From IMG/VR virus record IMGVR_UViG_3300044731_001604, positions 64,001 to 128,000 of that record: DNA of 64,000 nucleotides. One strand, written 5' to 3'. The DNA comes from a virus. Below are positions 940 through 41,311 of the stretch, in pieces. The position numbers and the translations under genes were made by a program. The notes beneath the pieces were generated by a model that ran no database searches, had not been told where the DNA came from, and saw only the letters and a list, made by a program, of their open reading frames with translations. Position 1 is the first letter of the stretch. Each line of letters starts with the position of its first letter.

Positions 940-1128
940 ATGACTAAGCGCGAATTGTCCGCATCTGTTTACATATTGGTTACTTTTATTATATGCTATT
1001 TTGCTTATGGTGTTTATCAGACAAAACAACAAATTTCTCAAGCTTGTGAAGATCAGTGCTACCCGGCGGATGTTAAAGACGCAGATATGCAATATTGTAA
1101 ATGTTTTTACAAAAAAGCTGGGATGTAA
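940..1128 (+). CDS. small membrane-anchored Cys-rich protein
   Basis: TM helix then C-x3-C...C-x-C; GAGG RBS. Confidence 0.6.
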   Translation: MTKRELSASVYILVTFIICYFAYGVYQTKQQISQACEDQCYPADVKDADMQYCKCFYKKAGM

Positions 1129-1301
1129 TGGTTAAAAGAGAGCGCATTAGTCTTGGTCTTAATGGTAAAATAAGTTTAGTAATCGGCGATCAAGTCGGAT
1201 ACGATCTATTAAATCATTTGTACACGAAGCTCTATAAAGATTTAAACTATAGTATTGCAATTAAACTACGTTCATACTTATACGAGAAACCCCAAAAATG
1301 A
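1128..1301 (+). CDS. KRxQ tetrad-repeat microprotein family member (MVKRER...)
   Basis: TAATG-coupled start at 1128; hydrophobic residue roughly every 4th position. Confidence 0.55.
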   Translation: MVKRERISLGLNGKISLVIGDQVGYDLLNHLYTKLYKDLNYSIAIKLRSYLYEKPQK

Positions 1302-1495
1302 ATAAGAGAGATCAACACACCATTTCATTTGATTATGAGCTGAGGACAGTATTTCATAATTATTTTTCAACACAAATGCATGGCGATCTTACAAGAGATG
1401 TGTGGATGGAAATTTGGGAAAAACTCGCCTACCAACTAAAAGATAATATGAAAGATAAAGTTAAAGACGTAATTAAGGACAGAATTTCAAAATGA
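1298..1495 (+). CDS. KRxQ tetrad-repeat microprotein (MNKRDQ...)
   Basis: conserved N-terminus, 65 aa, 4-residue periodicity. Confidence 0.65.
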   Translation: MNKRDQHTISFDYELRTVFHNYFSTQMHGDLTRDVWMEIWEKLAYQLKDNMKDKVKDVIKDRISK

Positions 1496-3587: not shown

Positions 3588-5714
3588 TTAATATATCTCT
3601 CGCCATTGTAATCCAGCTGATATATTTGTGGCTTTTGTATCAATATTTTTAACAATTATGACATAAACTTCCGAGTTAGTAGAATCAAAATTTTGCACTA
3701 TATAGTTCTTTTTAGCCGAACTTGGAATTACTGCATTTGAATCGCTTCCAGCCTTACTTCCGCCTTGTGACGCAGATGCTGCAAACCCAACGCTTAGTAT
3801 GTCTGCATTTGTATATCCAGTCGCATTAGCTAGATATTCAACGCCACTTTCAGAGTTAGTACTGGTCCACACTCCAGCTCCACCTGTTAAGTTAGACGCA
3901 TTTTGTAATTTTGCTATAGAAAATTGAACGTTACCAGAATCAGTGAAAACTGTAACTTGTCCTAGTCTAGCTAACATACGATTTAAATATGTTTTATAAT
4001 TATTTTTCAATCTAATTGCTAATATTGGTAAAGTTTGACCTGTGCCCAAAAGTCTTGGTGTGGGACTTGCAAGCGCCCAATCAATTCCAGCCTCAACATA
4101 TCCGCCTTCACTAACAACTGTACTACAAATTTGATCCATATATGCACCAGTTGTAACTCCGGTGTTAAATATTTCGCAGCGAACTGGCAAATTTGGATTA
4201 CTCATATAAACTGTAGTAAGATTATTTTCGCCATCAAAATGATGCGCCTCAATATATTTACCCTCATGAGAAAACCCAACCCTGACTCTTCCCACGCCAA
4301 GCCATTGAAAATCTATAAAAAGCAACTGAGTTTTTGTAATATCTAAGTTTAAAGAACTAATTCCAGTTCCATCGCACTTGTCAACATTCCAATTTAACTG
4401 AGAAACTCTATTTTCATTGACGGCACCATTAATATAGCTTCTTAAGACAATATTTAAGGTTCCGTTTCCGGTTTGTTCAAAGTAAATTCCATTATTATCA
4501 TCAAACAGCCCAGTTCTTTTTGTCACCCCTGAAGTACTTGAATAAAAATTAAAGGATGACATTATTAGCTGGCTTTTTCCTGGCATATAATGATGATAGC
4601 ATTTGGTCTGGTGTATCGCCTTACTATTAACATCACTGCTGGTAGTCAATCTCGCGCATGCTTTATTTGATTGAAATGAAATAGTTCCACCATTTAATGT
4701 ATAGTCTATGAAATTTGGGTCTATTCCGTAGAGATGTTTATAGTCTCCAAGGGTATACGGCTCGCTCACTCTTTGTCTTGCAAAAGCATCTAGTGTGCCG
4801 ACCCCAGGAGTTGTAAAAACAGATCCGGATACTACCCACGGATTTGTTCCTTGATTTGCAGTAACTGTTCCGTTTACAGTTTGAGTTGCCGGGAAATTAC
4901 CAACATCAACTGTTCCGTTTACAGTTTGAGTTGCCGGGAAATTACCAACATCAACTGTTCCGTTTACAGTTTGAGTTGCCGGGAAATTACCAACATCAAC
5001 TGTTCCGTTTACTGTTTGTGTAGCTGGGAAATTACCAACATCAACTGTTCCGTTTACTGTTTGTGTAGCTGGGAAATTACCAACATCAACTGTTCCGTTT
5101 ACTGTTTGTGTAGCTGGGAAATTACCAACATCAATGGAAGAGTTTAAAAAATATACGTCTAACCCAATATCAGTTCCAACAGTATGCGATGTTAAAAAAT
5201 TGGTTCCGTCTCCAAGACGAACAGAATCATTTGTATGTGTAAGATCAACGTCTAGGCTAACTTCTGGCTTAATTGTAATATTTGCATCAACAGCAAGTCT
5301 ATTAACTCCATTTTCATCTGCTACAAATTCTGCATACTGACCATATTTATCTACGAGGATTGATCTTTTTGCATTTATTGGATCTTCTGCATGACTAGCT
5401 CTTTCAAAAATCTCCATTCCCATCGGATTTCTTTGTTGTTCCCAAGCAGTTAAGGTTCCGCCGGAGTACGAAGTAGGATTGGAAAATGTGGCCATGTCTT
5501 TTCCAACTGGACCGACTTGAATCTGAGTGTCAGAGATAACTCTCTTAATTTCAAGCTCTAGTTGTTCTAAGCCTGTTTTATTTAAATATACCAATTGTTT
5601 AGGATGTAATAATCCTTGAGTATCTGGTACTGTAATTATATGATTTGAAACTTGAATCGGATTGGCTAAAAATGTAGGCCACCGTCTATCAAACGACGAA
5701 GTTAACTTGCTCAT
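3588..5714 (-). CDS. virion structural protein (fibre/lectin-like) with internal 15-aa repeats
   Basis: C-terminal DAFARQRVSEP...YMPGKSQ...FQWLGVGRVRVG beta-sandwich domain seen in phage structural proteins; 6x VDVGNFPATQTVNGT; ATG 5714 preferred over TTG 5735. Confidence 0.65.
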   Translation of the reverse strand: MSKLTSSFDRRWPTFLANPIQVSNHIITVPDTQGLLHPKQLVYLNKTGLEQLELEIKRVISDTQIQVGPVGKDMATFSNPTSYSGGTLTAWEQQRNPMGMEIFERASHAEDPINAKRSILVDKYGQYAEFVADENGVNRLAVDANITIKPEVSLDVDLTHTNDSVRLGDGTNFLTSHTVGTDIGLDVYFLNSSIDVGNFPATQTVNGTVDVGNFPATQTVNGTVDVGNFPATQTVNGTVDVGNFPATQTVNGTVDVGNFPATQTVNGTVDVGNFPATQTVNGTVTANQGTNPWVVSGSVFTTPGVGTLDAFARQRVSEPYTLGDYKHLYGIDPNFIDYTLNGGTISFQSNKACARLTTSSDVNSKAIHQTKCYHHYMPGKSQLIMSSFNFYSSTSGVTKRTGLFDDNNGIYFEQTGNGTLNIVLRSYINGAVNENRVSQLNWNVDKCDGTGISSLNLDITKTQLLFIDFQWLGVGRVRVGFSHEGKYIEAHHFDGENNLTTVYMSNPNLPVRCEIFNTGVTTGAYMDQICSTVVSEGGYVEAGIDWALASPTPRLLGTGQTLPILAIRLKNNYKTYLNRMLARLGQVTVFTDSGNVQFSIAKLQNASNLTGGAGVWTSTNSESGVEYLANATGYTNADILSVGFAASASQGGSKAGSDSNAVIPSSAKKNYIVQNFDSTNSEVYVIIVKNIDTKATNISAGLQWREIY
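4863..5132. repeat. 6 x 45-bp in-frame tandem repeat
   Basis: units 4863-4907 through 5088-5132; three identical type A then three identical type B units differing at synonymous sites. Confidence 0.95.
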
Positions 5715-5838
5715 AATAAAATTTCCCCAACCCAATGAAATTATTCATTTATGCCCCACGGCATTACTAAACCAATGTCTAGCTAATTAAAGATTAGGGT
5801 ACTATTATTTTTTAATTTTAATTAATGTAATTAATGAT

Positions 5839-6037: not shown

Positions 6038-6229
6038 TTATTTGCCTATTTTTTCTTCATATAATTGTTGGTGAGTTTGATCTCTTAATTCGTACCAGAG
6101 CGTGATGTCTTTTAATTGCTCCCAAATTTGGGCATACATTTGATCTGATATTGTGGAATGGAGCCACATATACAGTTCGTCCCTAAATCTCTCTCTTAGT
6201 TTATCCCGAAACTGCTCTCTTTTTCTCAT
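6038..6229 (-). CDS. KRxQ tetrad-repeat microprotein (MRKREQF...)
   Basis: FRDK LRER FRDE LYMW LHST ISDQ MYAQ IWEQ periodicity. Confidence 0.7.
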   Translation of the reverse strand: MRKREQFRDKLRERFRDELYMWLHSTISDQMYAQIWEQLKDITLWYELRDQTHQQLYEEKIGK

Positions 6230-6421
6230 TTATGTATTTTTCTTTTGGGTTTCGTGACAGATTTGTTCACATATTTGATCAATCAATTCTGCATTGATTT
6301 CATATATTTCTTCCCAAGTCCCTTCTAAAACATTATCAATAACGTCACCATATACGTTTCTATCAATCATTTCATATAAATGATCTTTGATTTTTCTATA
6401 TATCTGATGACGTTTTTTCAT
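6230..6421 (-). CDS. KRxQ tetrad-repeat microprotein (MKKRHQI...; start revised)
   Basis: ATG 6421 just after vWA gene stop; family N-terminus. Confidence 0.7.
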   Translation of the reverse strand: MKKRHQIYRKIKDHLYEMIDRNVYGDVIDNVLEGTWEEIYEINAELIDQICEQICHETQKKNT

Positions 6422-6428
6422 TGTATGC

Positions 6429-7535
6429 CTACAATCTGATAACTTTGCCGAAATCGCCTGGTGGATTTTGTGACCCAACTCCTACCCAAATAAAGGGAAT
6501 GCCTGGATTTGTCGGCGTGTCTGCGCAATCAAAATCACCGAAATATATAATAGCGTCACATTTTCTTTTTACGCATTCGTCAATTGCTGGTTGATATGCA
6601 GTTCCACCGCTACCAAATCTTTTTGTTAATACACCAGGTTTAGCTTTTCCACCTTTAATTACATCAACTTTTTGCACTTCAGAATCTGCGTGGACTAAGT
6701 AAGTGATCGTAGTATTTTTTGCTATAGATGATATTTCATTTAAGAATGATGAGTAAGCTTCGTCCGAGATTGACCCTGACGAATCAGTACATACACCAAG
6801 TATTAAATTTCTTTTCTTTTTCTTGCCTGGTTGATCTAGCTCAAATCTTCTGTGAGTTTTAAGGCGTGTGCTTTTAGTTTGGACGTCCCTAGCCGATGAA
6901 ACAAAGTTTCTTAAGAGCTGCTTCCAGCTAATTGTCGCTGGTTTATTTAAATTACCAATGATAGACTCTAATCCATTCGGAACAAGCCCACCAGATGCCT
7001 TTATGGCTTGATTAACCTTGTCTTTAATAATCACTCTATCTAAATCGCCTTTTTCGCTTTCGTTCATTTCATCATGATCGCTCATCCACGATGCTACTTC
7101 TTGCTTATCTGCTACTTCTGCCATTTCTTTGTAATAGTATTCCCAAGACTCTTTTGGCAAAAGTTTCTTCTTACACATTTCTTCTGCCCACGCAAGCGTA
7201 ATGCAATCTGATGGTAAATCAGAAATGTGTTGGTTAATAGCGCAATCTTTTGCTATGTTTGTTAATTGATGATTAAGGATATCTCCAGCCCTATTGCCGA
7301 TATGATCTAAAACCGCGTGTAAAACTTCGTGTTTTAACACAGCAATCTGTTGAGCATCGGTTAATGTTGCAAACCAGTCTGGATTTACTTTAAAGTAAAG
7401 CTCTTTGTTCTTAATACCTACGCAAGCTCTTTCAATTTTTGGATCATCATAAACGACTCTAGAGCCTAAAATAAAATTAGCATAGAATCGTTCGGTATTA
7501 ATTAACGTAAAAATTGGCTTTTCTAGTAAACCCAT
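6429..7535 (-). CDS. DUF2201-type metallopeptidase + vWA domain protein
   Basis: HEVLH zincin motif, NIAKDCAINQ, vWA DSSGS ... GGT ... YFGD. Confidence 0.88.
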   Translation of the reverse strand: MGLLEKPIFTLINTERFYANFILGSRVVYDDPKIERACVGIKNKELYFKVNPDWFATLTDAQQIAVLKHEVLHAVLDHIGNRAGDILNHQLTNIAKDCAINQHISDLPSDCITLAWAEEMCKKKLLPKESWEYYYKEMAEVADKQEVASWMSDHDEMNESEKGDLDRVIIKDKVNQAIKASGGLVPNGLESIIGNLNKPATISWKQLLRNFVSSARDVQTKSTRLKTHRRFELDQPGKKKKRNLILGVCTDSSGSISDEAYSSFLNEISSIAKNTTITYLVHADSEVQKVDVIKGGKAKPGVLTKRFGSGGTAYQPAIDECVKRKCDAIIYFGDFDCADTPTNPGIPFIWVGVGSQNPPGDFGKVIRL

Positions 7536-7558: not shown

Positions 7559-8617
7559 TTATGCTTTTTCAAACTGAGCTGCGTATTCGGGGTCATTTAA
7601 GAGATCATTTTTTCCATGGAAATTGCCAAGTTTTCCTAATCCGACAAAGGCTTTCATAGCTAACTCAATTGGGATATCTAGTAGAAATTGCTTTAGATTA
7701 TCAATAGACATATCTGCTGAAAGGAGGTGAGGGTTGCTCTCTAGTTTAGCAAATAATTCATCAATTGGCTGATTAAGAACATCCATGCGAACATTGCTAG
7801 CACTTGCCGTGATATCTAATACTTTATTTCTAGCAATTTTTTTGTAGTTTTTAAGAATGTCATTAAGGCTTAATCCTGTTTCTTGCTTAGCTTTGTGTGT
7901 TAATCTAGCCGCTGCTGCAACCGGCCCTACAATACCTGAATATAATTCATATCTTAGACTATCATCTAATCCTTCTTCTAAATCAAGGGCGCCAACGCTT
8001 TCAAGCCAAGCTCTAGGGTCTCTTGTAACCATTGACATATCAAGTCTTCCGCCTTCTTTTGCAGTAAGATTTAACATCTCAGGTTGTTCACGAATAAAAG
8101 AAGCAAGGCTAAATAATCCTCTGCTTTCTGCATAAACTAACCATTCTTCAGTTGTAGGAGTGAAATCAATATGACAGAAACGAGATAGCCAAGCTGAGTC
8201 GCTTGTATCTGTTGTAGTGAATCTTTCTGATTGGTAGTTTCCAGCAGCAGCGATACGCCAACCCGGAGGTAATTTGTGTGTATGAATAGTTCCATTTTGC
8301 ACAAAAGAATACATTGCTTGAATTACATCAGTCGGCGCTCTATTTAATTCATCTAAAAAGATAATTCCTTCACCCTCAGTAGGAAACCATTTAGGTTTTG
8401 CATGATAAACTTCGCCGTTTTCGCCTTTAACTAAGAGGCCAACTAAATCGCCCACATCTTGAGTAGCCGTGTGTAAAACTCTTAATTGTAAGTTGTTCTT
8501 TACGCAATACTGATTCCAAAACTGTGTCTTTCCAACACCTTGACTGCCCCAAAAGAATGGAACAATTCGGTTTTTTAATAGAAAAGGAATAGCTTTGTTG
8601 ATTTCAGAAATATTCAT
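7559..8617 (-). CDS. MoxR-like AAA+ ATPase (start revised to ATG 8617)
   Basis: Walker A GSQGVGKT, Walker B IIFLDELNRA, AAGN, SRF; GGAGG at 8623-8627. Confidence 0.9.
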   Translation of the reverse strand: MNISEINKAIPFLLKNRIVPFFWGSQGVGKTQFWNQYCVKNNLQLRVLHTATQDVGDLVGLLVKGENGEVYHAKPKWFPTEGEGIIFLDELNRAPTDVIQAMYSFVQNGTIHTHKLPPGWRIAAAGNYQSERFTTTDTSDSAWLSRFCHIDFTPTTEEWLVYAESRGLFSLASFIREQPEMLNLTAKEGGRLDMSMVTRDPRAWLESVGALDLEEGLDDSLRYELYSGIVGPVAAAARLTHKAKQETGLSLNDILKNYKKIARNKVLDITASASNVRMDVLNQPIDELFAKLESNPHLLSADMSIDNLKQFLLDIPIELAMKAFVGLGKLGNFHGKNDLLNDPEYAAQFEKA

Positions 8618-8636
8618 CTGGACCTCCGTTTCAATT

Positions 8637-8707
8637 ATCATAACATTTTATTTTCGGTACGTCAACCTAAAAAAACTTATTGCAAATTGTTTTATTTGTG
8701 CTACATT
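8637..8707. promoter_or_regulatory. divergent sigma70-like promoter pair
   Basis: minus: TTGACG(8665-8660)-17-TATGAT(8642-8637); plus: TTGCAA(8680-8685)-16-TACATT(8702-8707) with TG extension. Confidence 0.65.
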
Positions 8708-8740
8708 TAATATGTACCATTTAACAAAAAGGAGCATAAA

Positions 8741-9367
8741 ATGGATAACAAAATTACTGAACTTACCCCAGAACAAGAAGCGTTATTTCCAGCTTATTTG
8801 GAAAAATTCAGAAATATCGGCCTATCAACTACTCCAACAAATAGACAAAAGGCTGAAGAGGCTTTAACAAAAGCTTATGCTTATTTATCTAAAACTGATC
8901 CTAATTTATGCGTTCCAAATCCAGAAATCATCTGGGCAGAAAGCCCAATGGCAGGCGCAGTTCTTGCTGCTCAACACGCTAAAGGCGATCTTAACGTAAC
9001 AGATTCAGAAGTGCAAGATCAAGCTTGGCGAGCTTCTTATGGTTCATTCGAGGCATACTGGGTGAGTACTTATTCATTTATCTGCAATGAGCTTCCAGTA
9101 GAAAAAGACGAGCTTATCGACATCGTTATGGAAATCATCAATGAGTGCGGCGTGTACTGGACATATAAAGATTTGGTTATCCTTACTCCAAAGCCAACTT
9201 TTATCGGAATGAAAGACGGAAAATTACACAACTCTAAAGGGCTAGCTTTAGCATATCCAGATGGAAACGGAATCTATGCTGTAAATGGTTCTAGAAAAAA
9301 CTCTTTAATTGAAGCTACGTTAGAACAAAGAGCTAACAGCTTAATTGGTTCAACTTCAGAAGATTAA
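8741..9367 (+). CDS. DUF6745-like protein lacking long internal repeat
   Basis: LTPEQEALFP...GLST.PTNRQKAE...IIWAESP...YG.FEAYW...GKLHN..G.ALAYPDG..IYA.NG. Confidence 0.75.
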   Translation: MDNKITELTPEQEALFPAYLEKFRNIGLSTTPTNRQKAEEALTKAYAYLSKTDPNLCVPNPEIIWAESPMAGAVLAAQHAKGDLNVTDSEVQDQAWRASYGSFEAYWVSTYSFICNELPVEKDELIDIVMEIINECGVYWTYKDLVILTPKPTFIGMKDGKLHNSKGLALAYPDGNGIYAVNGSRKNSLIEATLEQRANSLIGSTSED

Positions 9368-9390
9368 AATAAACACGTATGAGGGTCGCC

Positions 9391-9582
9391 ATGAGGCAAA
9401 GAGATCAGATAAATAGAATAAGCAACAAGTATTTTGATCATATTGACGGCGACCTTTATAATGAAAATTTTCATTTAATATCAGATTATCTCCAATACAT
9501 TTTATACATTGAGCGCTCACCAGTCGATAACATTGTTGACGAGCTATCCACATATATTGAGACTATGAATTTGGGGAATTGA
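9391..9582 (+). CDS. KRxQ tetrad-repeat microprotein (MRQRDQI...)
   Basis: GAGGG RBS before ATG 9391; family N-terminus. Confidence 0.65.
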   Translation: MRQRDQINRISNKYFDHIDGDLYNENFHLISDYLQYILYIERSPVDNIVDELSTYIETMNLGN

Positions 9583-9587
9583 TTTAA

Positions 9588-9785
9588 ATGAAAAAACGCA
9601 AGCAGATAGACGGAATCCTTTTTACGATTATTGAAAACAATCTTTACCATCAGGTATACTACGATGTCAATTCAAAAAATCGAGAAAAGATCTATACAGG
9701 AATTTACGAACTGCTTATGGATGAACTAAATGTTAAGTTAATAAATATTATTAACGATTTTATTAAATCGAGAAGAGCATCATGA
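9588..9785 (+). CDS. KRxQ tetrad-repeat microprotein (MKKRKQI...)
   Basis: family N-terminus, periodicity. Confidence 0.7.
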   Translation: MKKRKQIDGILFTIIENNLYHQVYYDVNSKNREKIYTGIYELLMDELNVKLINIINDFIKSRRAS

Positions 9786-9979
9786 AAAAAAGGGTTCAGA
9801 TACCTGATTTTTTAAATGAAAACATATGCGATCATCTTAGATATAGCATATATGTTCAAGTTGATGATACTATTTGGCGTGTAATACTATCTGAACTATA
9901 TATAAAACTTCATGATAAGCTTAACAATACGTTAATTAATGAAACCTGGGATTATATTAAAATGGGGCCAAAAATATGA
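9782..9979 (+). CDS. KRxQ tetrad-repeat microprotein (MKKRVQI...)
   Basis: IPDF LNEN ICDH LRYS IYVQ VDDT IWRV ILSE LYIK LHDK LNNT LINE; ATGA coupling. Confidence 0.75.
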   Translation: MKKRVQIPDFLNENICDHLRYSIYVQVDDTIWRVILSELYIKLHDKLNNTLINETWDYIKMGPKI

Positions 9980-10182
9980 AAAAGCGCATCCAATTTAATG
10001 ATCCTCTATATAATATATTCTATCCTAAAATTAGAGATAGAGTTAGGCTTGAAATAAAATATAAAACTTTTGAAAAGATAAGCAAGAGACTCACTGGTGA
10101 GCTTAATTCGCAATTCTGGGGCCAAATTGGATATCAGATTGGTAAATACATCGAGGATAGGAGTTCAAGTGAGAAGGCGTGA
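9976..10182 (+). CDS. KRxQ tetrad-repeat microprotein (MKKRIQF...)
   Basis: FNDP LYNI FYPK IRDR VRLE IKYK ... FWGQ IGYQ IGKY. Confidence 0.75.
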   Translation: MKKRIQFNDPLYNIFYPKIRDRVRLEIKYKTFEKISKRLTGELNSQFWGQIGYQIGKYIEDRSSSEKA

Positions 10183-10351
10183 GCAGATTACTGATCAGCT
10201 TAGGGATAATGTTTGGGAATCTTTAAACGGGCAGCTCCAATATCAAATTGAACCAGATATCTATAATAGGCTGCATGACGTTCTGTGCGAAGAAAAGAGA
10301 TACAGACTCATAAGCCAATTATATTTATATTTAAGGACTAGGGTTAACTAA
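10169..10351 (+). CDS. KRxQ tetrad-repeat microprotein (GTG start, MRRREQI...)
   Basis: AGGAG RBS 10159-10163; ITDQ LRDN VWES LNGQ LQYQ. Confidence 0.7.
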   Translation: MRRREQITDQLRDNVWESLNGQLQYQIEPDIYNRLHDVLCEEKRYRLISQLYLYLRTRVN

Positions 10352-10555
10352 ATGAGGAAACGAGAACAAATCACTAGTCAATTTTCATATCAACTTTGGG
10401 ATAGACTTAGAGATGACATATACGTGCAACTGTATTCCTCATTTAATGAGGACATACACAATAAACTCAGGGACAATCTTTGGCTTGAGCTGCAAATATT
10501 ATTGTACGATAGAACGTATAGCTATTTGCAAAACTATATAGGCAAGAAGCAATGA
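10352..10555 (+). CDS. KRxQ tetrad-repeat microprotein (MRKREQI...)
   Basis: ITSQ FSYQ LWDR LRDD IYVQ LYSS FNED IHNK LRDN LWLE LQIL LYDR. Confidence 0.75.
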   Translation: MRKREQITSQFSYQLWDRLRDDIYVQLYSSFNEDIHNKLRDNLWLELQILLYDRTYSYLQNYIGKKQ

Positions 10556-10728
10556 AGAAGAATAAAATTATAGAATTTAAATTAAGAGTTAGATTAAAAG
10601 AACAAATCACAAAATCTTGTGGTTCAGATTGTATCAGCACGTCAAGAAAAAAGCTAAGAGAATTATCATCTTACGACTTATATAAAGCGGCTGTTGGAGA
10701 AATTGTCTCTGCTTCTGTGTCAAAATAA
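10552..10728 (+). CDS. small protein, possible divergent tetrad-family member
   Basis: 58-aa ORF (below track cutoff), ATGA-coupled, MKKNKII...LKEQI. Confidence 0.45.
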   Translation: MKKNKIIEFKLRVRLKEQITKSCGSDCISTSRKKLRELSSYDLYKAAVGEIVSASVSK

Positions 10729-10794
10729 ATATTTTTTAATATTTTTCTTGCTTTTAATATCAGATATTGGTAATCTAGGTTTATTGGAGGCGTT

Positions 10795-11184
10795 ATGAAA
10801 TTCAAAGCCGGAGATAGATTTATAGTTAAGGCAAGCGAGTCTGATTTAGGAGCCACTGGAAAAATAACTGGAATTGGGTTTAATTCTATACGCCAATCTG
10901 ACGAATATAGATATGTTTGGGACCAGCAATTCGGCGGTTCTACTGGGAGCTGTGATACAGAAGTTGGGGATTCTATGTGGGACATTATTGCGGCAGATAT
11001 CCACACACATACATACACACATGTTTACACAATTCCTGAAGACAATTATACAATTTCAGTTGGAAACATCGTTTGGAACAATCCTACTTCCAACTCTACA
11101 AATTGTTCCCACGAATATAAAATGTATAATGGATTTACTGAAAGTTATGAATTTTGCATTAAATGCGATAAAAGAAAGATCTAG
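10795..11184 (+). CDS. SH3/KOW-like N-terminus plus C-terminal zinc ribbon
   Basis: MKFKAGDR...G.I; CSH...CIKCD; GGAGG RBS; TTGCTT-17-TAATCT promoter at 10748-10776. Confidence 0.6.
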   Translation: MKFKAGDRFIVKASESDLGATGKITGIGFNSIRQSDEYRYVWDQQFGGSTGSCDTEVGDSMWDIIAADIHTHTYTHVYTIPEDNYTISVGNIVWNNPTSNSTNCSHEYKMYNGFTESYEFCIKCDKRKI

Positions 11185-11188
11185 TAAT

Positions 11189-11407
11189 ATGAGGAAAAGA
11201 GAGCAGCCTAATAATTTGTTTTTTAACCAACTTGTCATAAAGCTTAGGGATCAAGCTGAAAACCAACTTTGTGATAATTTAAGTTATCAACTACATGATA
11301 ATCTTAAGCTTTACAAGATTTGTGAACAGTTTCGCAATACAGCTCTTAATATTATTCGTACACAATCATTAAATGATATTGATAATAAATTAAAAAGAAA
11401 GGTTTAA
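11189..11407 (+). CDS. KRxQ tetrad-repeat microprotein (MRKREQP...; start revised)
   Basis: ATG 11189 follows stop of upstream gene; LRDQ AENQ LCDN LSYQ LHDN. Confidence 0.7.
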   Translation: MRKREQPNNLFFNQLVIKLRDQAENQLCDNLSYQLHDNLKLYKICEQFRNTALNIIRTQSLNDIDNKLKRKV

Positions 11408-11408
11408 C

Positions 11409-11756
11409 ATGGAAAATCTATATCTAGACAAAGAGGCTTTTCTTGAAGATGAATATGTGTCTGAGGTTGTAATCATTGACACGTTACCTGGCGGATTTAA
11501 CCAGAGATCTGAATTATTGCCTGAGCCAATTGAAATTTTGAAATTTGAGAAAGTTAGCAGCAAGTTATCTTTGGAAAGAAAAGTAAGACTATCTGCAAAT
11601 TATATTACTGCAGAGGAGGGTCTTAAAATGATCCAAAAAAGTGAGAGACTACACGCCAAATCTAATAGAAAATGTACTTCTTGTGGAGGATACGTCCCAA
11701 AAGAAAATTTTAGTAGATGCAATACTTGCGTTAAATTAAAAAATGTGGTAGACTAA
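11409..11756 (+). CDS. hypothetical protein with C-terminal CxxC...CxxC zinc finger
   Basis: CTSCGG...CNTC. Confidence 0.6.
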   Translation: MENLYLDKEAFLEDEYVSEVVIIDTLPGGFNQRSELLPEPIEILKFEKVSSKLSLERKVRLSANYITAEEGLKMIQKSERLHAKSNRKCTSCGGYVPKENFSRCNTCVKLKNVVD

Positions 11757-11778: not shown

Positions 11779-12000
11779 ATGAAGAAACGTAAGCAAATAT
11801 CAGATCATATAAGTAATGATTTAAAGTTTGAGCTTTTTGATAGGCTTGAAGAGCAGGTTGATGGTGAACTTTTTGATCAAATTGATGAGGAACTTTTTGA
11901 GTACGTTACAGGTGGAAGCTACATTGACATAGATGTAAACTTAATAAAAGAACAGTTGTTTTCTCATATTGAAAATATAAATGGCCGAAAGGTTGGTTAA
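11779..12000 (+). CDS. KRxQ tetrad-repeat microprotein (MKKRKQI...)
   Basis: ISDH ISND LKFE LFDR LEEQ VDGE LFDQ IDEE LFEY. Confidence 0.75.
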   Translation: MKKRKQISDHISNDLKFELFDRLEEQVDGELFDQIDEELFEYVTGGSYIDIDVNLIKEQLFSHIENINGRKVG

Positions 12001-12001
12001 A

Positions 12002-12208
12002 ATGAAAAAACGAGAAGGAATGAAGATTTTGCCGAAAGATCAAATTAGTCCTGAAGTTTGGGATAGAATCGTTAGCCAGCTTGAGAATCGTCTTAACGGC
12101 CAAAATAAAGCCATAGAGGCGCCAAAAAAAGAAGGCTTTGTAAGATTTCTTAAATATAAGACATACTTTAATGCAATTAAAAATCTATTTAATAAGAAGG
12201 GCGGTTAA
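12002..12208 (+). CDS. KRxQ-related microprotein (MKKREG...)
   Basis: ISPE VWDR IVSQ LENR LNGQ; start revised to ATG 12002. Confidence 0.55.
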   Translation: MKKREGMKILPKDQISPEVWDRIVSQLENRLNGQNKAIEAPKKEGFVRFLKYKTYFNAIKNLFNKKGG

Positions 12209-12996: not shown

Positions 12997-13382
12997 AGAC
13001 TAAAGTTAAAATCGAATATTTTGCAGGGGATGTAACTAAAATTATTGGCGAACAATGTAACCACATGTCTGATTATGACAAGTTACAAAGCCAAGAAATA
13101 AAAGCGGTTATTAGGAATTATGTCACTAGAAATGCTATTGATTTAGTTCTTAAGGGTGTATCAAAGCGCCCAAAAGCTCCACAATCGTTTTTAAATAATT
13201 ATAATTCGCATAATTTATATACTGTCTCAAAATCTCACATTGAAAAAAGACTTATTGACAGATTGAACGTCATTCTGTTATGCTATTATCAGATGCTTAT
13301 GTATGATGGAATTGATGTAGAGACCTTTTTGGCCCTATGTGATAGTTATGTAGACCATCATATTTTTGAAATTGATTTATAG
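12993..13382 (+). CDS. hypothetical protein
   Basis: 129-aa ORF in operon. Confidence 0.55.
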   Translation: MKTKVKIEYFAGDVTKIIGEQCNHMSDYDKLQSQEIKAVIRNYVTRNAIDLVLKGVSKRPKAPQSFLNNYNSHNLYTVSKSHIEKRLIDRLNVILLCYYQMLMYDGIDVETFLALCDSYVDHHIFEIDL

Positions 13383-14467: not shown

Positions 14468-14971
14468 TTAGATACCGTCTGTAATTTTAGCTGCAGTAGC
14501 AGACTCATCATCTCCGCCGCCAGCGATTCCAGTTTCATCTTCGCCTTTAAGTGCTACGATTTCAATTCTGATATCAGAAACACCTCTAGAAGCTACTCCA
14601 GATGACCATGAAGTTACTTTACAACCTACAGCTCTAAAGATAACTTTGTTATTGTTTGCTCTATCTAAAACTTCTACTGTGAAATCCTCTTCTTCTAAAA
14701 GATCTTTAAGTAAAGTTGCATTAGCTACAGCGTATGGTCCAGCGTCTACTACTCTGTATCCAGATAAAGATAAAGAGACAGCTTCTTGGCTTGTTCCAAC
14801 GATTTCTGCTGGAGAGTATCTACCCAATACAAATAAAGGCTCTTTTGCTTGTCTGATAGACCAAGAGCAGTTGCTGAATAATCCAACTGTGTGGGAAGAA
14901 GGCTTTCCGCCTACATTTTTAGTGATTTGAATTTTGGCCCGTGCGCCGACCAATGTTTTTGCTTTTGCCAT
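14468..14971 (-). CDS. tail tube protein
   Basis: directly downstream of sheath; LGRYSPAEI-type tube motif; 167 aa. Confidence 0.75.
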   Translation of the reverse strand: MAKAKTLVGARAKIQITKNVGGKPSSHTVGLFSNCSWSIRQAKEPLFVLGRYSPAEIVGTSQEAVSLSLSGYRVVDAGPYAVANATLLKDLLEEEDFTVEVLDRANNNKVIFRAVGCKVTSWSSGVASRGVSDIRIEIVALKGEDETGIAGGGDDESATAAKITDGI

Positions 14972-14983
14972 AAATACTCCCTA

Positions 14984-17719
14984 TTAAGCTGTTTGTTCTA
15001 CTTGAGAAATGGTCATTGAGATTGGAACGAAGTAAATTAAACCAGCGAGTTTGATCTCTACGCTGACTTCACATACAGGTCCAGTGATTTTAACTGTAGC
15101 GTTTTTATAACCCTTAGTTGCATCATCTGATTGAGCAATCCATTTAAGTCTCAAGAAGTTAAACATTTCAGTGTCTAAGATACTTAAAGCAGCCGCTGCA
15201 GAGATATCAGCTACAGATTTACCAACTACTAAGCGATCAAAACGGTCGATTAGAGTAAGTACGATTAAATCTGAGATATAAACAGCTTGCATGCTATTGT
15301 AAACGAAATTGTTATCAGCAGAATATGTGCTTTGATCAGATACCCATCTGAATCCGCCAGTTGGAACTTTTTCCATGAACAACAATCCAGCTTTTAATGC
15401 ATCTTCTCTATCACCTTGAAGAGAAGTGTCGAAATCGCCAGAAGTCATAGAAATTCCGCTTACAGAAGCGAATTTTTTAACGATACCTTTGTATCCTGCA
15501 GCAGCCTGCATTCCAGCAGCTGTGATCGCAGACATCCAAGGTTGGTATAAAGTAGATCCGATTTTAGCGTTTTGGAAGCAGAGGTACATTCTGTATGAAG
15601 AAAGTTCTCCAGACATCTCTTTAACGTTTGCATAAGTATCAATTACAGATGCAAAACCTTGTCTATTCTTTTTAGCTTTAATTTGGCTCATTTTATTAAC
15701 GTGAGCTTTAAGGTAAGCATTGATAGAAGAGATAGTATAAGTAGAAGAGCTTTCAGTTTCTTCAGCCGCGATATCTGCAGTAGCATCTTGTGAGAATAAT
15801 GGAACGATAAAGTTAGTATCCAATTTTTCACATGCATCAATTGCAGTAACAACGATTGCTGAAGTTGTTCCAGCTTTAGTTCCATCAGATAAGAATTGGA
15901 AAGAAGCAGTAGCTTCAGGCAATCCAGCAGCAAGAACTTCAAAAGAAGCATAAGCGCTACCGTTCATTGTTTCAGAGAAATCAGAAGCATCTTTTTTAAG
16001 TCTAGCATTGTTTGCAATACCAGAAGCTCCATAAGTTCCCATATCTAATTTAGAAGGAGCAACAGAACTGTACTTAGCAGAAACAACTGAAGCTGTCCAG
16101 TTAGTTTGTGAGTTAACAAAATCAGCTAAATCAGTTAATGTTTTATATTGTTTATAAGTAGCTGAGAATACCATTGTAGAAGCTACATAGAAATCAACAC
16201 TTTCTGTTCCAACATCAACTGTTGCATCTTCTTCAGAGCAACCGATAGTTATAACAATGTCACCACCAGCTTGGAGGATTTCAGAGTTAGTTCCTTGAGT
16301 GATTGTCATTTGATTTTTGTATTCAGCAGCAGACACTAATTGTTTATAGCTTAGACCTGCATCTGTTCCAGCGTCTGTTTTGAAGATTTCGCTAGTTGAG
16401 CTTTCAATTGCCAATGTTTTTCCCAATCCAGACATAACTGGAGCAAGAACTACTAGAGGTTCCGTGCCAGAGCTATATGCTGCAGAAGCAGGAACTGAAG
16501 CAATTGAAGATCCTTCAGAAAGTCTAGAAGCAGTAATTGATGTAGCAGTTGCAGCAGTGATTTGATAGAAACCAGCGGCTACTGTTCCAAAAGTAGCAGC
16601 AACTTTCATGATGTCGCCGATACTTGGAGTAACATTTAAATTAGCTGGTGCGTCGATTTTTACGCTTGATCCAGTGTTAATAGATACTGTATAAGTACCG
16701 AAAACATCTTGAACAGCTTGTCTTTCGTCGCCAGTCATATTTTTAATTTCGATTTTAGAATAGAACACAAGGTCACGTTTATCAACAGACACTGATCCAG
16801 AAGCAGATGTTAAAGCTGCTGCAGAGTAAACTTTTTTCAAAGTTACTGTAGCTGAAGAAGAAGTGTTTGTAGCTGCTGTAACGATGTACGTTCCAACGTT
16901 TTCTTGAGAAGATCCAGCAATCGCTGAATTTTGAGCAGCAGAGTAATCACCATTTGCAGGGATTACAGCTACGTCTCCAACGCTTGGAATAGTTGTCCAC
17001 AATTTAGTAGCTTGTAAAGTTACTAAAAGAGTACTTGCGTCAAGTGCAGATGCAGAGAATGTAGATGTAGTTGGCAATAAGATTTTTTCTTGTCCACCAG
17101 TTGCCAATACGCCTTCTGCGATATTTTCTAATGCTGCAACTAATGCATCTGGAGCCATTTTAGGAGTAACAGTGTGAGACATTTTTGCTCCACCGTTAAT
17201 TCTTAAATCAACATAATTTGTGTCAGATAAAGTTGGAGTATAGCAAATTTCTCCAGTTGTAGGTGCAGTTTCTGCTCTAGCAACATCTGATTTTTGTTTA
17301 ATTAAGTTTCCGTCAGTTCCTTCTTTTTTAGCTAAAACATTAGCATAAGTAGGAGTGTCTTTAACTTTTTGAGTCATCGTAGCGGCTGCTTTAGTTGACA
17401 TATTAGTTTTAATAATTCTTACCGCACCAACAGAACCTAAAATGTTAGGGTCATTTGCAGCAGAAACTAATTGTTTAAAAGCATCAACGATGTGACCACT
17501 TTTATATTTAGACTGTACTTTGCTGTACTGGTCTGGAGTGAATATATTTGCTGTAAGATCTGATTCATCTAAGAATCCTGGACCGGCATCAGCTTCACCA
17601 ATAAGTGTAACTACTCCAGCAGAAGCGATTGCACCCTGGCCACCTTGAACAGATACTGAAACTACTGCACCTGGTTCAATTAATGTAATTCCATCTTGGG
17701 TCGTAAATTTTTGACTCAT
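14984..17719 (-). CDS. contractile tail sheath protein
   Basis: N-terminal EPG...IGEADAG, C-terminal sheath domain (DQSTY...IYFVPI), large Ala/Thr/Ser-rich insertion. Confidence 0.88.
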   Translation of the reverse strand: MSQKFTTQDGITLIEPGAVVSVSVQGGQGAIASAGVVTLIGEADAGPGFLDESDLTANIFTPDQYSKVQSKYKSGHIVDAFKQLVSAANDPNILGSVGAVRIIKTNMSTKAAATMTQKVKDTPTYANVLAKKEGTDGNLIKQKSDVARAETAPTTGEICYTPTLSDTNYVDLRINGGAKMSHTVTPKMAPDALVAALENIAEGVLATGGQEKILLPTTSTFSASALDASTLLVTLQATKLWTTIPSVGDVAVIPANGDYSAAQNSAIAGSSQENVGTYIVTAATNTSSSATVTLKKVYSAAALTSASGSVSVDKRDLVFYSKIEIKNMTGDERQAVQDVFGTYTVSINTGSSVKIDAPANLNVTPSIGDIMKVAATFGTVAAGFYQITAATATSITASRLSEGSSIASVPASAAYSSGTEPLVVLAPVMSGLGKTLAIESSTSEIFKTDAGTDAGLSYKQLVSAAEYKNQMTITQGTNSEILQAGGDIVITIGCSEEDATVDVGTESVDFYVASTMVFSATYKQYKTLTDLADFVNSQTNWTASVVSAKYSSVAPSKLDMGTYGASGIANNARLKKDASDFSETMNGSAYASFEVLAAGLPEATASFQFLSDGTKAGTTSAIVVTAIDACEKLDTNFIVPLFSQDATADIAAEETESSSTYTISSINAYLKAHVNKMSQIKAKKNRQGFASVIDTYANVKEMSGELSSYRMYLCFQNAKIGSTLYQPWMSAITAAGMQAAAGYKGIVKKFASVSGISMTSGDFDTSLQGDREDALKAGLLFMEKVPTGGFRWVSDQSTYSADNNFVYNSMQAVYISDLIVLTLIDRFDRLVVGKSVADISAAAALSILDTEMFNFLRLKWIAQSDDATKGYKNATVKITGPVCEVSVEIKLAGLIYFVPISMTISQVEQTA

Positions 17720-36529: not shown

Positions 36530-37417
36530 TTAGATGTTGCTAGTAAACATATTTTGTCCATAATATGTTTTTAATTTCTTCATAAGCCCTTGATATCTTT
36601 GATCTAATGTAGTTATTTTTTGAGTTAACACATTTATCATTTGGTCATTGATGCTTTGGCTCATGGCATCAACTGAAAGAGATTGAGACGCCGTTCTATA
36701 CAAAGGAATAAGATTCTCAGCAAGTAACATAGCTGCTGCGCATCCAATTGCTTCATTTACTATTACAGGAAGTTGTCCAGCCGGGTCCATAAGTCCACAT
36801 TCATATTCAACTGTCCAAAATGACGGTATAAACGCACCAACGCCTAAAATTGATAATAATGTAGCGCCGGCTTGAGATGCACTAGTACTGAACGAAATAG
36901 CTCCATAAGCTGGAGATATCGGAATAACGTTTAAAAGGCCCCTTGTTGCGTTAGACGGGTCTACCCATGAGTTTGGTATAGTGTATATTGCTCCACCAGA
37001 TGGGAACTCTTTATCTGCCTCTAAAACGCCTTTTTCGTCAACAACTTGATCGTAGTTTGCTGATGCCAAGGCAAGTCTTACAACTCTTTTAATTGGCTTG
37101 TTCGGTATTTCAAGATGAATGAACTGTTTGTATAGAGCGGCATCAAACGGTAATCTTGAGCGCATTACTTTTGTTTGTATTTGAATTTTAGAGTCAAATT
37201 GAAGTCTAGCCATACCACGTTTGACAAAATCCTCTAGATCTTCTGATTGAATCTTTTCTTTTGTCATAGGTGATATCATTGGTATACCAAAGAAAAACCG
37301 TCTACGGAAAGTATCTGCATCTAATAATGGCTCTACTTCGGCCATTATGCCAGAAGATTCTATTACATTCTGGGGAAATGCTGCGCCGACCGGTTTTTTA
37401 CTATCTGTAAAGTCCAT
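36530..37417 (-). CDS. putative head-tail adaptor
   Basis: position; SQSLSVDAMSQS motif typical of SPO1/Twort-like adaptors. Confidence 0.6.
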   Translation of the reverse strand: MDFTDSKKPVGAAFPQNVIESSGIMAEVEPLLDADTFRRRFFFGIPMISPMTKEKIQSEDLEDFVKRGMARLQFDSKIQIQTKVMRSRLPFDAALYKQFIHLEIPNKPIKRVVRLALASANYDQVVDEKGVLEADKEFPSGGAIYTIPNSWVDPSNATRGLLNVIPISPAYGAISFSTSASQAGATLLSILGVGAFIPSFWTVEYECGLMDPAGQLPVIVNEAIGCAAAMLLAENLIPLYRTASQSLSVDAMSQSINDQMINVLTQKITTLDQRYQGLMKKLKTYYGQNMFTSNI

Positions 37418-41119: not shown

Positions 41120-41311
41120 TTATTTTTTATTTATAATGTGAAAATATATTTGCATGAAGAGCGTGGTATAATGCTCTTCGTATATTTTATACCTAATCCC
41201 ATAATAAATATCTTTGCTACGTATGTTTTCATCAACTTGATGATGAGTTTGTATCTTCAATTGTTCATAAATGAAGTTGCTAAAATTTTCAAATTGCTCG
41301 CGCTTTTTCAT
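41120..41311 (-). CDS. KRxQ tetrad-repeat microprotein (MKKREQF...)
   Basis: family N-terminus; IYEQ LKIQ THHQ VDEN. Confidence 0.7.
   Translation of the reverse strand: MKKREQFENFSNFIYEQLKIQTHHQVDENIRSKDIYYGIRYKIYEEHYTTLFMQIYFHIINKK

Follow-up and report, generated by a model that had tools for sequence, protein, structure and literature searches.

Where has the repeat of a repeat-protein gone when the gene itself lacks it? This question is raised by a 64,000-nucleotide stretch of phage DNA (the window), which is bases 64001-128000 of the uncultured phage record IMGVR_UViG_3300044731_001604. The record is 157,572 bp long and rated 98% complete, and the window has a G+C content of about 35%. 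The open reading frame (ORF) at 8741-9367 on the plus strand, here called the core, encodes the sole DUF6745 protein of the whole genome. Seven co-directional small genes (58-68 amino acids) follow it in a tightly packed row that starts 12 bases past its stop codon. A sequence-only reading of the window had proposed that the core is a DUF6745 protein without its usual insert of four-residue (tetrad) repeats, and that the small genes encode this repeat in trans. Our analysis makes it fairly probable that the short DUF6745 core and free-standing, partly decayed hairpin microproteins are one system in a detached layout. Loci are labelled L and genomes G below. Phage loci were fetched with DUF6745 as the anchor; a scan of viral contigs with a single protein returned almost nothing, and an alignment query was required to recover them.

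The core does belong to DUF6745. The Pfam profile PF20530 matches its residues 98-184 with 32.8 bits (cut-off 27). This match covers profile positions 8-88 of 206 only, and the protein terminates 24 amino acids past profile position 88. Residues 6-83 match positions 22-97 of phrog_31813 (E = 1.8e-8). An N-terminal LTPEQEA...IGLST(E)P module is present upstream of the Pfam domain and can be aligned with the long forms of the family. The C-terminal half of PF20530 (positions 89-206) is missing, and the same loss is seen across the whole short clade. We considered that this half might be supplied in trans and rejected the idea, since searches of the 157.6-kb genome with tblastn and a hidden Markov model found no such segment anywhere else. 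A few relatives of about 308 amino acids (P0114, P0119) have an equally short linker but a complete C-terminal half. The core is not a one-off truncation, because at least 140 homologous clusters (188-249 amino acids, 45-97% identity to the core) have the same linker length and share a conserved linker consensus, VTxxEIxxQAxxAS.

The linker runs from IIWAESP to YGSFEAYW. It measures 30 amino acids, as the sequence-only reading had estimated, and its tetrad score of 3 corresponds to no internal repeat. The same length is found in nine short-form loci, which represent six or seven distinct phages (L006 and L007 have identical proteins, as do L010 and L011). Long relatives carry 13-55 tetrads exactly where the core has this stub. 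In UOF77368.1 of Caudoviricetes sp. MW202476 (425 amino acids), whose N-terminal module and central domain are homologous to the core, about 30 LxSS tetrads form a 158-residue insert between IWCDSP and GQHEAYW. The insert of L021 has 167 residues and that of L022 consists of 47 VxDQ tetrads. Built-in repeats of the types VxDQ, VxDS, VxAS and LxSQ occur among the phage forms. In the long proteins, the repeat is thus in cis at the stub site, whereas in the window phage repeat-like sequence lies in separate genes and profile positions 89-206 are absent. The statement of the sequence-only reading that DUF6745 proteins usually carry a long repeat there was too strong: a built-in repeat is present in about half of the sampled phage loci and in 27 of 79 bacterial loci. 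The family is large, with 3109 clusters at 50% identity (E <= 0.001) in phages and filamentous cyanobacteria. About one third of the 150 best 50%-identity representatives match in two separate stretches, as an insert would cause.

An AlphaFold2 model of the core, built from 41 sequences, has a mean predicted local distance difference test score (pLDDT) of 95.3 and a predicted template modelling score of 0.86. The linker is modeled as two short helices, residues 69-81 and 88-96, with pLDDT above 94. The nearest relative with a built-in repeat, L016, has 21 LxSQ tetrads and a short C-terminus like that of the core. Its insert is modeled as a helical hairpin (H60-104 and H110-143). On comparison of the two models, the long hairpin helices of L016 begin at the place of the two core helices. 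Because the short helices stand where the hairpin of L016 arises, the models indicate that the linker is the conserved stub of a hairpin rather than a decaying repeat. It had been read as a vestige; with conserved length and consensus and two confidently predicted helices, it is not decaying sequence.

The insert site is variable outside the phages as well. DUF6745 is common on the chromosomes of filamentous cyanobacteria (L222, L230, L232, L242 and L284, from Tolypothrix, Microcoleus, Lusitaniella, Nostoc and Calothrix). At the insert site, these proteins carry non-tetrad or decayed variable inserts, one of about 240 amino acids with a hydrophobic stretch. Some members are fused to leucine-rich repeats, as one Atlas cluster shows. 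In general, variable modules seem to accumulate at this site as at a hot spot. Many contigs end within the built-in repeat (L019, L023, L037-L039, L041, L044, L053, L063, L068, L078 and others). The repeat lengths in the databases are lower bounds, because the built-in repeat evidently breaks short-read assemblies.

If the repeat can be either built in or detached, the two layouts should be visible across the family. We took a census of 78 phage loci anchored on DUF6745, from which duplicates were then removed, with flanks of at most 10 kb per side. The internal tetrad run of the DUF6745 ORF was scored (a score of at least 10 counted as a repeat), as were polar period-4 micro-ORFs in the flanks, with two or more units counted as an array. 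Arrays were found in none of the 34 loci with a built-in repeat and in 18 of the 30 repeat-less loci (Fisher p = 2.4e-8, a test that ignores kinship). They often comprise 5-19 units. In a second, motif-based sample, arrays were again absent from all loci with a built-in repeat (0/37, or 0/71 together with the census). Built-in and detached repeats are thus mutually exclusive, alternative layouts across phage DUF6745 lineages. The arrays carry repeat types that are also built in (VxDQ, VxDS and LxxQ), while their starts and ends are lineage-specific. A four-position pattern, [VL]-[WRGY]-[DNSA]-[QS], is common to both layouts, and within the short clade both are LxxQ.

These alternatives arose repeatedly. 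In an insert-free tree of 52 rows, the internal-repeat state changes six times. In an 84-row FastTree tree, the cis and trans states change nine times, with the added rows having been selected for having tetrads. Among independent pairs, arrays change opposite to the built-in repeat in 2.8-4.3 pairs and in the same direction in none.

We also searched in reverse, independently of DUF6745, for a DNA pattern encoding WDQVWDQV in viral contigs. It matched 116 stretches, of which 80 were analyzed. Where the match lay in a long ORF, the protein belonged to DUF6745 in 37 of 39 cases, and none of these 37, which make up the second sample above, had an array. Where it lay in a micro-ORF, a repeat-less DUF6745 gene was present in the stretch analyzed at 18 of 41 loci, several of them directly abutting. 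Among the micro-ORF records without DUF6745 in the stretch, three of the four that are at least 90% complete have the gene elsewhere. At the micro-ORF locus L116:1483-4043 (IMGVR_UViG_3300025729_000005), two VWDQ microgenes of about 100 amino acids lie between two repeat-less DUF6745 paralogues. The mutual exclusion, the complementary changes on the trees, the motif search and the equal make-up of the repeats all support the proposal that the repeat is encoded in trans. A second proposal, that the microproteins arose by excision of the DUF6745 repeat, was not borne out: where the internal inserts begin and end, nothing corresponds to the conserved sequences at the two ends of the microproteins.

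The microproteins of the window are listed with their neighbors in Table 1. The tetrad strings that the sequence-only reading had quoted are present, in the ORFs 10169-10351 and 10352-10555. Most candidates share an M[KR]KRxQ start; they are 58-73 amino acids long, with upstream sequences resembling ribosome-binding sites and tight or overlapping spacing. A period-4 hydrophobic pattern is significant (p <= 0.001, 2000 shuffles) in 10 of the 15 candidates and is not significant in 9379-9582, 10552-10728, 11189-11407, 12002-12208 and 41120-41311. Position 1 of the tetrad is kept (L, I, F or V), and position 4 shows no preference for Q or S. No 12-nucleotide DNA repeats are left in the microgenes, and the periodicity is therefore held at the protein level. 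A 3-kb contig with a 97% identical core has a 64-residue gene called at the place matching 9379-9582.

Table 1. Genes of the DUF6745 locus and candidate microproteins, in window coordinates; p values refer to the period-4 shuffle test.
Coordinates	Strand	Feature	Support
8741..9367	+	Core: repeat-less, C-terminally short DUF6745 protein, 208 aa	Pfam PF20530, phrog_31813, AlphaFold2, linker length
7559..8641	-	MoxR-type AAA+ ATPase, 360 aa, divergent from core	Pfam AAA_5 23.9 bits, cut-off 22
6429..7535	-	vWA-like protein, 368 aa, putative N-terminal zincin peptidase domain, HEVLH motif	DUF2201 61.4 bits, DUF2201_N 53.7 bits
9379..9582	+	First small gene after core; likely start is internal ATG 9391 (MRQRDQ...); family fit by start only	p = 0.83
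9588..9785	+	Tetrad microprotein, 65 aa, start MKKRKQ	tetrad score 11, p < 0.0005
9782..9979	+	Tetrad microprotein, 65 aa, start MKKRVQ, ATGA overlap with preceding gene	tetrad score 12, p < 0.0005
9976..10182	+	Tetrad microprotein, 68 aa, start MKKRIQ, ATGA overlap with preceding gene	tetrad score 11, p < 0.0005
10169..10351	+	Tetrad microprotein, 60 aa, GTG start (RRREQ), TAGGAG 5 bases upstream, holds VWES LNGQ LQYQ	tetrad score 11, p < 0.0005
10352..10555	+	Tetrad microprotein, 67 aa, start MRKREQ, holds LWDR LRDD IYVQ	tetrad score 12, p < 0.0005
10552..10728	+	Last of row, 58 aa, start MKKNKI, decayed member	p = 0.17, not significant
11189..11407	+	Microprotein, 72 aa, start MRKREQ, weak period	p = 0.09
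11779..12000	+	Tetrad microprotein, 73 aa, start MKKRKQ	tetrad score 10, p < 0.0005
12002..12208	+	Possible family member, 68 aa, start MKKREG, weak period	p = 0.05
6038..6229	-	Tetrad microprotein, 63 aa, start MRKREQ; second of two small genes downstream of vWA gene, opposite arm	tetrad score 9, p < 0.0005
6230..6421	-	Tetrad microprotein, 63 aa, start MKKRHQ	tetrad score 7, p = 0.001
1101..1495	+	Two period-4 small genes, 1101-1301 and 1298-1495 (start MNKRDQ)	tetrad scores 12 and 14, p < 0.0005
41120..41311	-	Isolated small gene, family fit by start (MKKREQ) only	p = 0.24, not significant

Across the whole genome, about 26-30 small genes begin with M[KR]KRxQ. Some 17 of them form a second cluster at 34.8-40.8 kb of the genome (G000:C1:34800-40800), and the only canonical (LxxQ)n member, at 36753-37001 outside the window, has the same start. 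The microproteins diverge faster than the core, AAA and vWA genes: they are 22-42% identical to their best paralogue in the genome and 27-44% identical to their counterparts in L003, L007 or L010, whereas the core, AAA and vWA proteins are 63-67% identical to those of L003. The microprotein at 10352-10555 has no word-sharing homologue among 5.8 billion proteins, and Pfam and PHROG searches with the microproteins returned sub-threshold chance matches only. In L003, a related 104.8-kb phage, units lie at 4432-5766, 7560-7968, 8621-9204 and 10367-11740. They are chained by one conserved junction, TATGAAGAAACATAA, in which the ...YEET-stop of one gene meets the MKKHK... of the next. The L003 repeat leaves antisense and +1 frames open, which is a trap for gene callers.

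At the nucleotide level, the core region has no match among GenBank phages. Promoter and terminator scans found no sites above the level of shuffled sequence. A 3364-bp contig binned with an uncultured Bacteroidales genome (L215, CAZMDE010000338.1) carries a 100% identical 208-residue core together with the first microgenes, which either points weakly to the host or reflects a binning artefact. Elsewhere in the window, a 45-nucleotide unit is repeated six times at 98% identity (4863-5134) within the minus-strand ORF 3588-5735 and encodes DVGNFPATQTVNGTV six times. The 715-residue protein of this ORF is possibly a fiber or other structural protein. The ORFs 14984-17719 (minus strand, 911 amino acids) and 14468-14971 (minus strand, 167 amino acids) are apparently structural and match no Pfam family.

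Upstream of the core, the divergent MoxR and vWA genes are a constant feature of the short forms. The vWA gene adjoins the short DUF6745 gene in all 12 short-form loci, which include the repeat-bearing L016 and array-less members, and the MoxR gene does so in 11 (L009 has vWA only). Homologues of the two were found in no long-form locus examined. The short subfamily is therefore defined by the loss of the C-terminal half and the gain of MoxR and vWA, because the pair stands beside the short core and is absent from the long-form loci. The MoxR-vWA-centered ternary conflict systems of bacteria combine a MoxR AAA+ protein, a vWA protein and a third component, and linked systems pair a zincin-like peptidase with a small, rapidly diverging protein (PMC7159879). 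The window likewise has adjacent MoxR and vWA genes conserved with a third gene, and its vWA protein has a putative zincin domain with small, fast-diverging genes alongside, as in the linked systems. Unlike the bacterial systems, it is phage-encoded, its third component is a short DUF6745 protein and apparently not VMAP, iSTAND, FtsH or a beta-propeller, and no effector domains were seen. Pfam profiles match the third gene to DUF6745 only, in a profile set without a VMAP model. The resemblance is one of gene organization only.

DUF6745 is a family with no known function, and a literature search found no mention of it or of its typical repeat strings. The GenBank phages that carry it are few and unstudied; like MW202476, Microcystis phage Ma-LMM01 and the Mycobacterium prophage prophiGD102-1 (gp38) encode members with an internal tetrad repeat. 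The only studied precedent for the role of such a repeat is gp54 of mycobacteriophage Tweety, which (with Che8 gp57 and PMC gp51) has 15-48 tetrapeptide repeats flanked by N- and C-terminal regions (PMC2884959, PMC9262239). The repeat number of gp54 shifts quickly among relatives, and mutants that have gained or lost repeats escape the Phrann gp29/gp30 defense (PMC2884959, PMC9262239). It differs from DUF6745 in its AAxS repeat and its flanking domains, and its repeat occurs in cis only, with no arrays. We rejected gp54 as a member of DUF6745, as it matches no Pfam family and its hhalign probability against the DUF6745 alignment is 0.1%; it is an analogue, not a homologue. The arrangement in the window is thus new relative to the published record, and the element, a tetrapeptide-repeat module of phage proteins, is known.

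How might these parts work together? In the detached layout that we favor, the core is a short-subfamily DUF6745 protein that retains its N-terminal module along with the first half of the Pfam domain and has lost the C-terminal half, with a two-helix stub in place of the variable tetrad-repeat hairpin. The 26-30 small genes would be detached versions of this hairpin, each with its own start codon and the shared start sequence. We infer that the variable surface with which the system works is the repeat hairpin, supplied either in cis or in trans, and that the fast-diverging microprotein set would cooperate with the core and probably also act on it. Assembly, remodeling or processing of the complex may fall to MoxR and vWA. 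Judged by analogy with gp54, a role in engaging variable host proteins, for example in counter-defense, is likely.

Several results weigh against this reading. A phylogeny-aware sign test gave p values of 0.06-0.25, which are not below 0.05, as there are too few independent pairs. About half of the microgenes sit some 30 kb from the core, and the L009 phage has its two canonical microgenes 56 kb from its core. The window microproteins are the most decayed that we have seen, and the period is not significant in the gene closest to the core. Three short-form genomes hold no recognizable tetrad genes: G013 (complete, 79.8 kb), and G014 and G015 (82-84% complete). Of the 79 bacterial DUF6745 loci, 52 lack both an array and a strong built-in repeat. 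The function rests on analogy, because there is neither a solved-structure nor a PADLOC match: Foldseek against the PDB found nothing at E <= 0.001 for the core model, VIA-align (wide) against solved structures gave no convincing match (best Z 4.5), and PADLOC had no match for the core, one microprotein or the long forms. Fold matches in BFVD were other DUF6745 proteins and weak local ones, including a MORN-repeat protein. The sequence-only reading had also asked whether short-insert genes occur with the arrays. Repeat-less genes do so at 18 of 30 census loci, but not in G013-G015 or at the 52 bacterial loci. Arrays go with repeat-less DUF6745, and repeat-less DUF6745 does not need arrays; the partnership is not obligatory, because these genomes and bacterial loci are without them. 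The G013 phage (L013) has genes of about 55 residues that start MRKYKN or MKKYNR (1569-1736, 2183-2335, 2635-2802, 13038-13205 and 15298-15471), which may be far-decayed relatives of the microproteins.

Some of these points would also fit a functional link that involves no complex. The hairpin itself could act as effector, for instance by decoying or inhibiting host proteins, once freed from DUF6745, with the core in a separate or regulatory role alongside MoxR and vWA. The distance of half of the microgenes from the core and the short cores without any tetrads are what it would lead one to expect. A complete 38-kb phage genome (G004) has a WDQV micro-ORF and no DUF6745, and the gp54 repeats sit in a quite different protein. 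Arrays nevertheless often abut the repeat-less core in the same transcription direction, and a core unrelated to the hairpin would hardly account for the mutual exclusion of arrays and built-in repeats. We hold an effector acting alone to be unlikely, with enough in its favor to be taken seriously.

Co-occurrence could instead be inherited and non-functional, the arrays being unrelated, fast-evolving small genes in lineages that happen to have an insert-less DUF6745. The non-significant sign test is in line with this. Period-4 amphipathic helices are simple enough for convergence to be possible, and the starts and ends of the microproteins are without counterpart in the built-in inserts. Unrelated genes would not readily account for six to nine state changes that are all complementary in direction, for a four-position pattern equal in both layouts, for the high share of DUF6745 among the long-ORF matches of a search made independently of it, or for the frequent direct adjacency. 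We consider such inheritance decidedly doubtful, more so than a freed effector. It is very improbable that the small ORFs are non-coding remnants of an earlier repeat or that a 12-nucleotide periodicity acts in DNA or RNA: repeat regions do keep several frames open (the antisense and +1 ORFs of L003), several window members have lost the period and 10352-10555 lacks a database homologue, but the start-codon context is conserved with a common start sequence, lengths are uniform (58-73 amino acids), genes overlap at ATGA, TAGGAG precedes the GTG start, the protein periodicity persists where the DNA tandem repeats are gone, and phages with 50-65% identical cores retain dozens of copies.

The detached layout of core and hairpin microproteins has a stronger form. 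The core could be loaded in turn with any of the roughly 30 hairpin microproteins and handled by MoxR and vWA, so that germline-encoded, exchangeable surfaces would neutralize varied host defense proteins. We put this forward as speculation, unlikely as it stands. If true, the number of built-in repeats and the number of detached microgenes would be two evolutionary routes to the same variability.

Through the two layouts, orphan microproteins that number dozens in each phage genome are tied to a single conserved protein, which gives a testable partner hypothesis for both. That the short core is so strictly coupled to MoxR and a vWA-peptidase suggests that phages carry a relative of the bacterial MoxR-vWA conflict systems. 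Should the hairpins be variable recognition surfaces, as the analogy with gp54 suggests, phages would have a new route of diversification, which proceeds through libraries of small genes and not through repeat slippage or diversity-generating retroelements.

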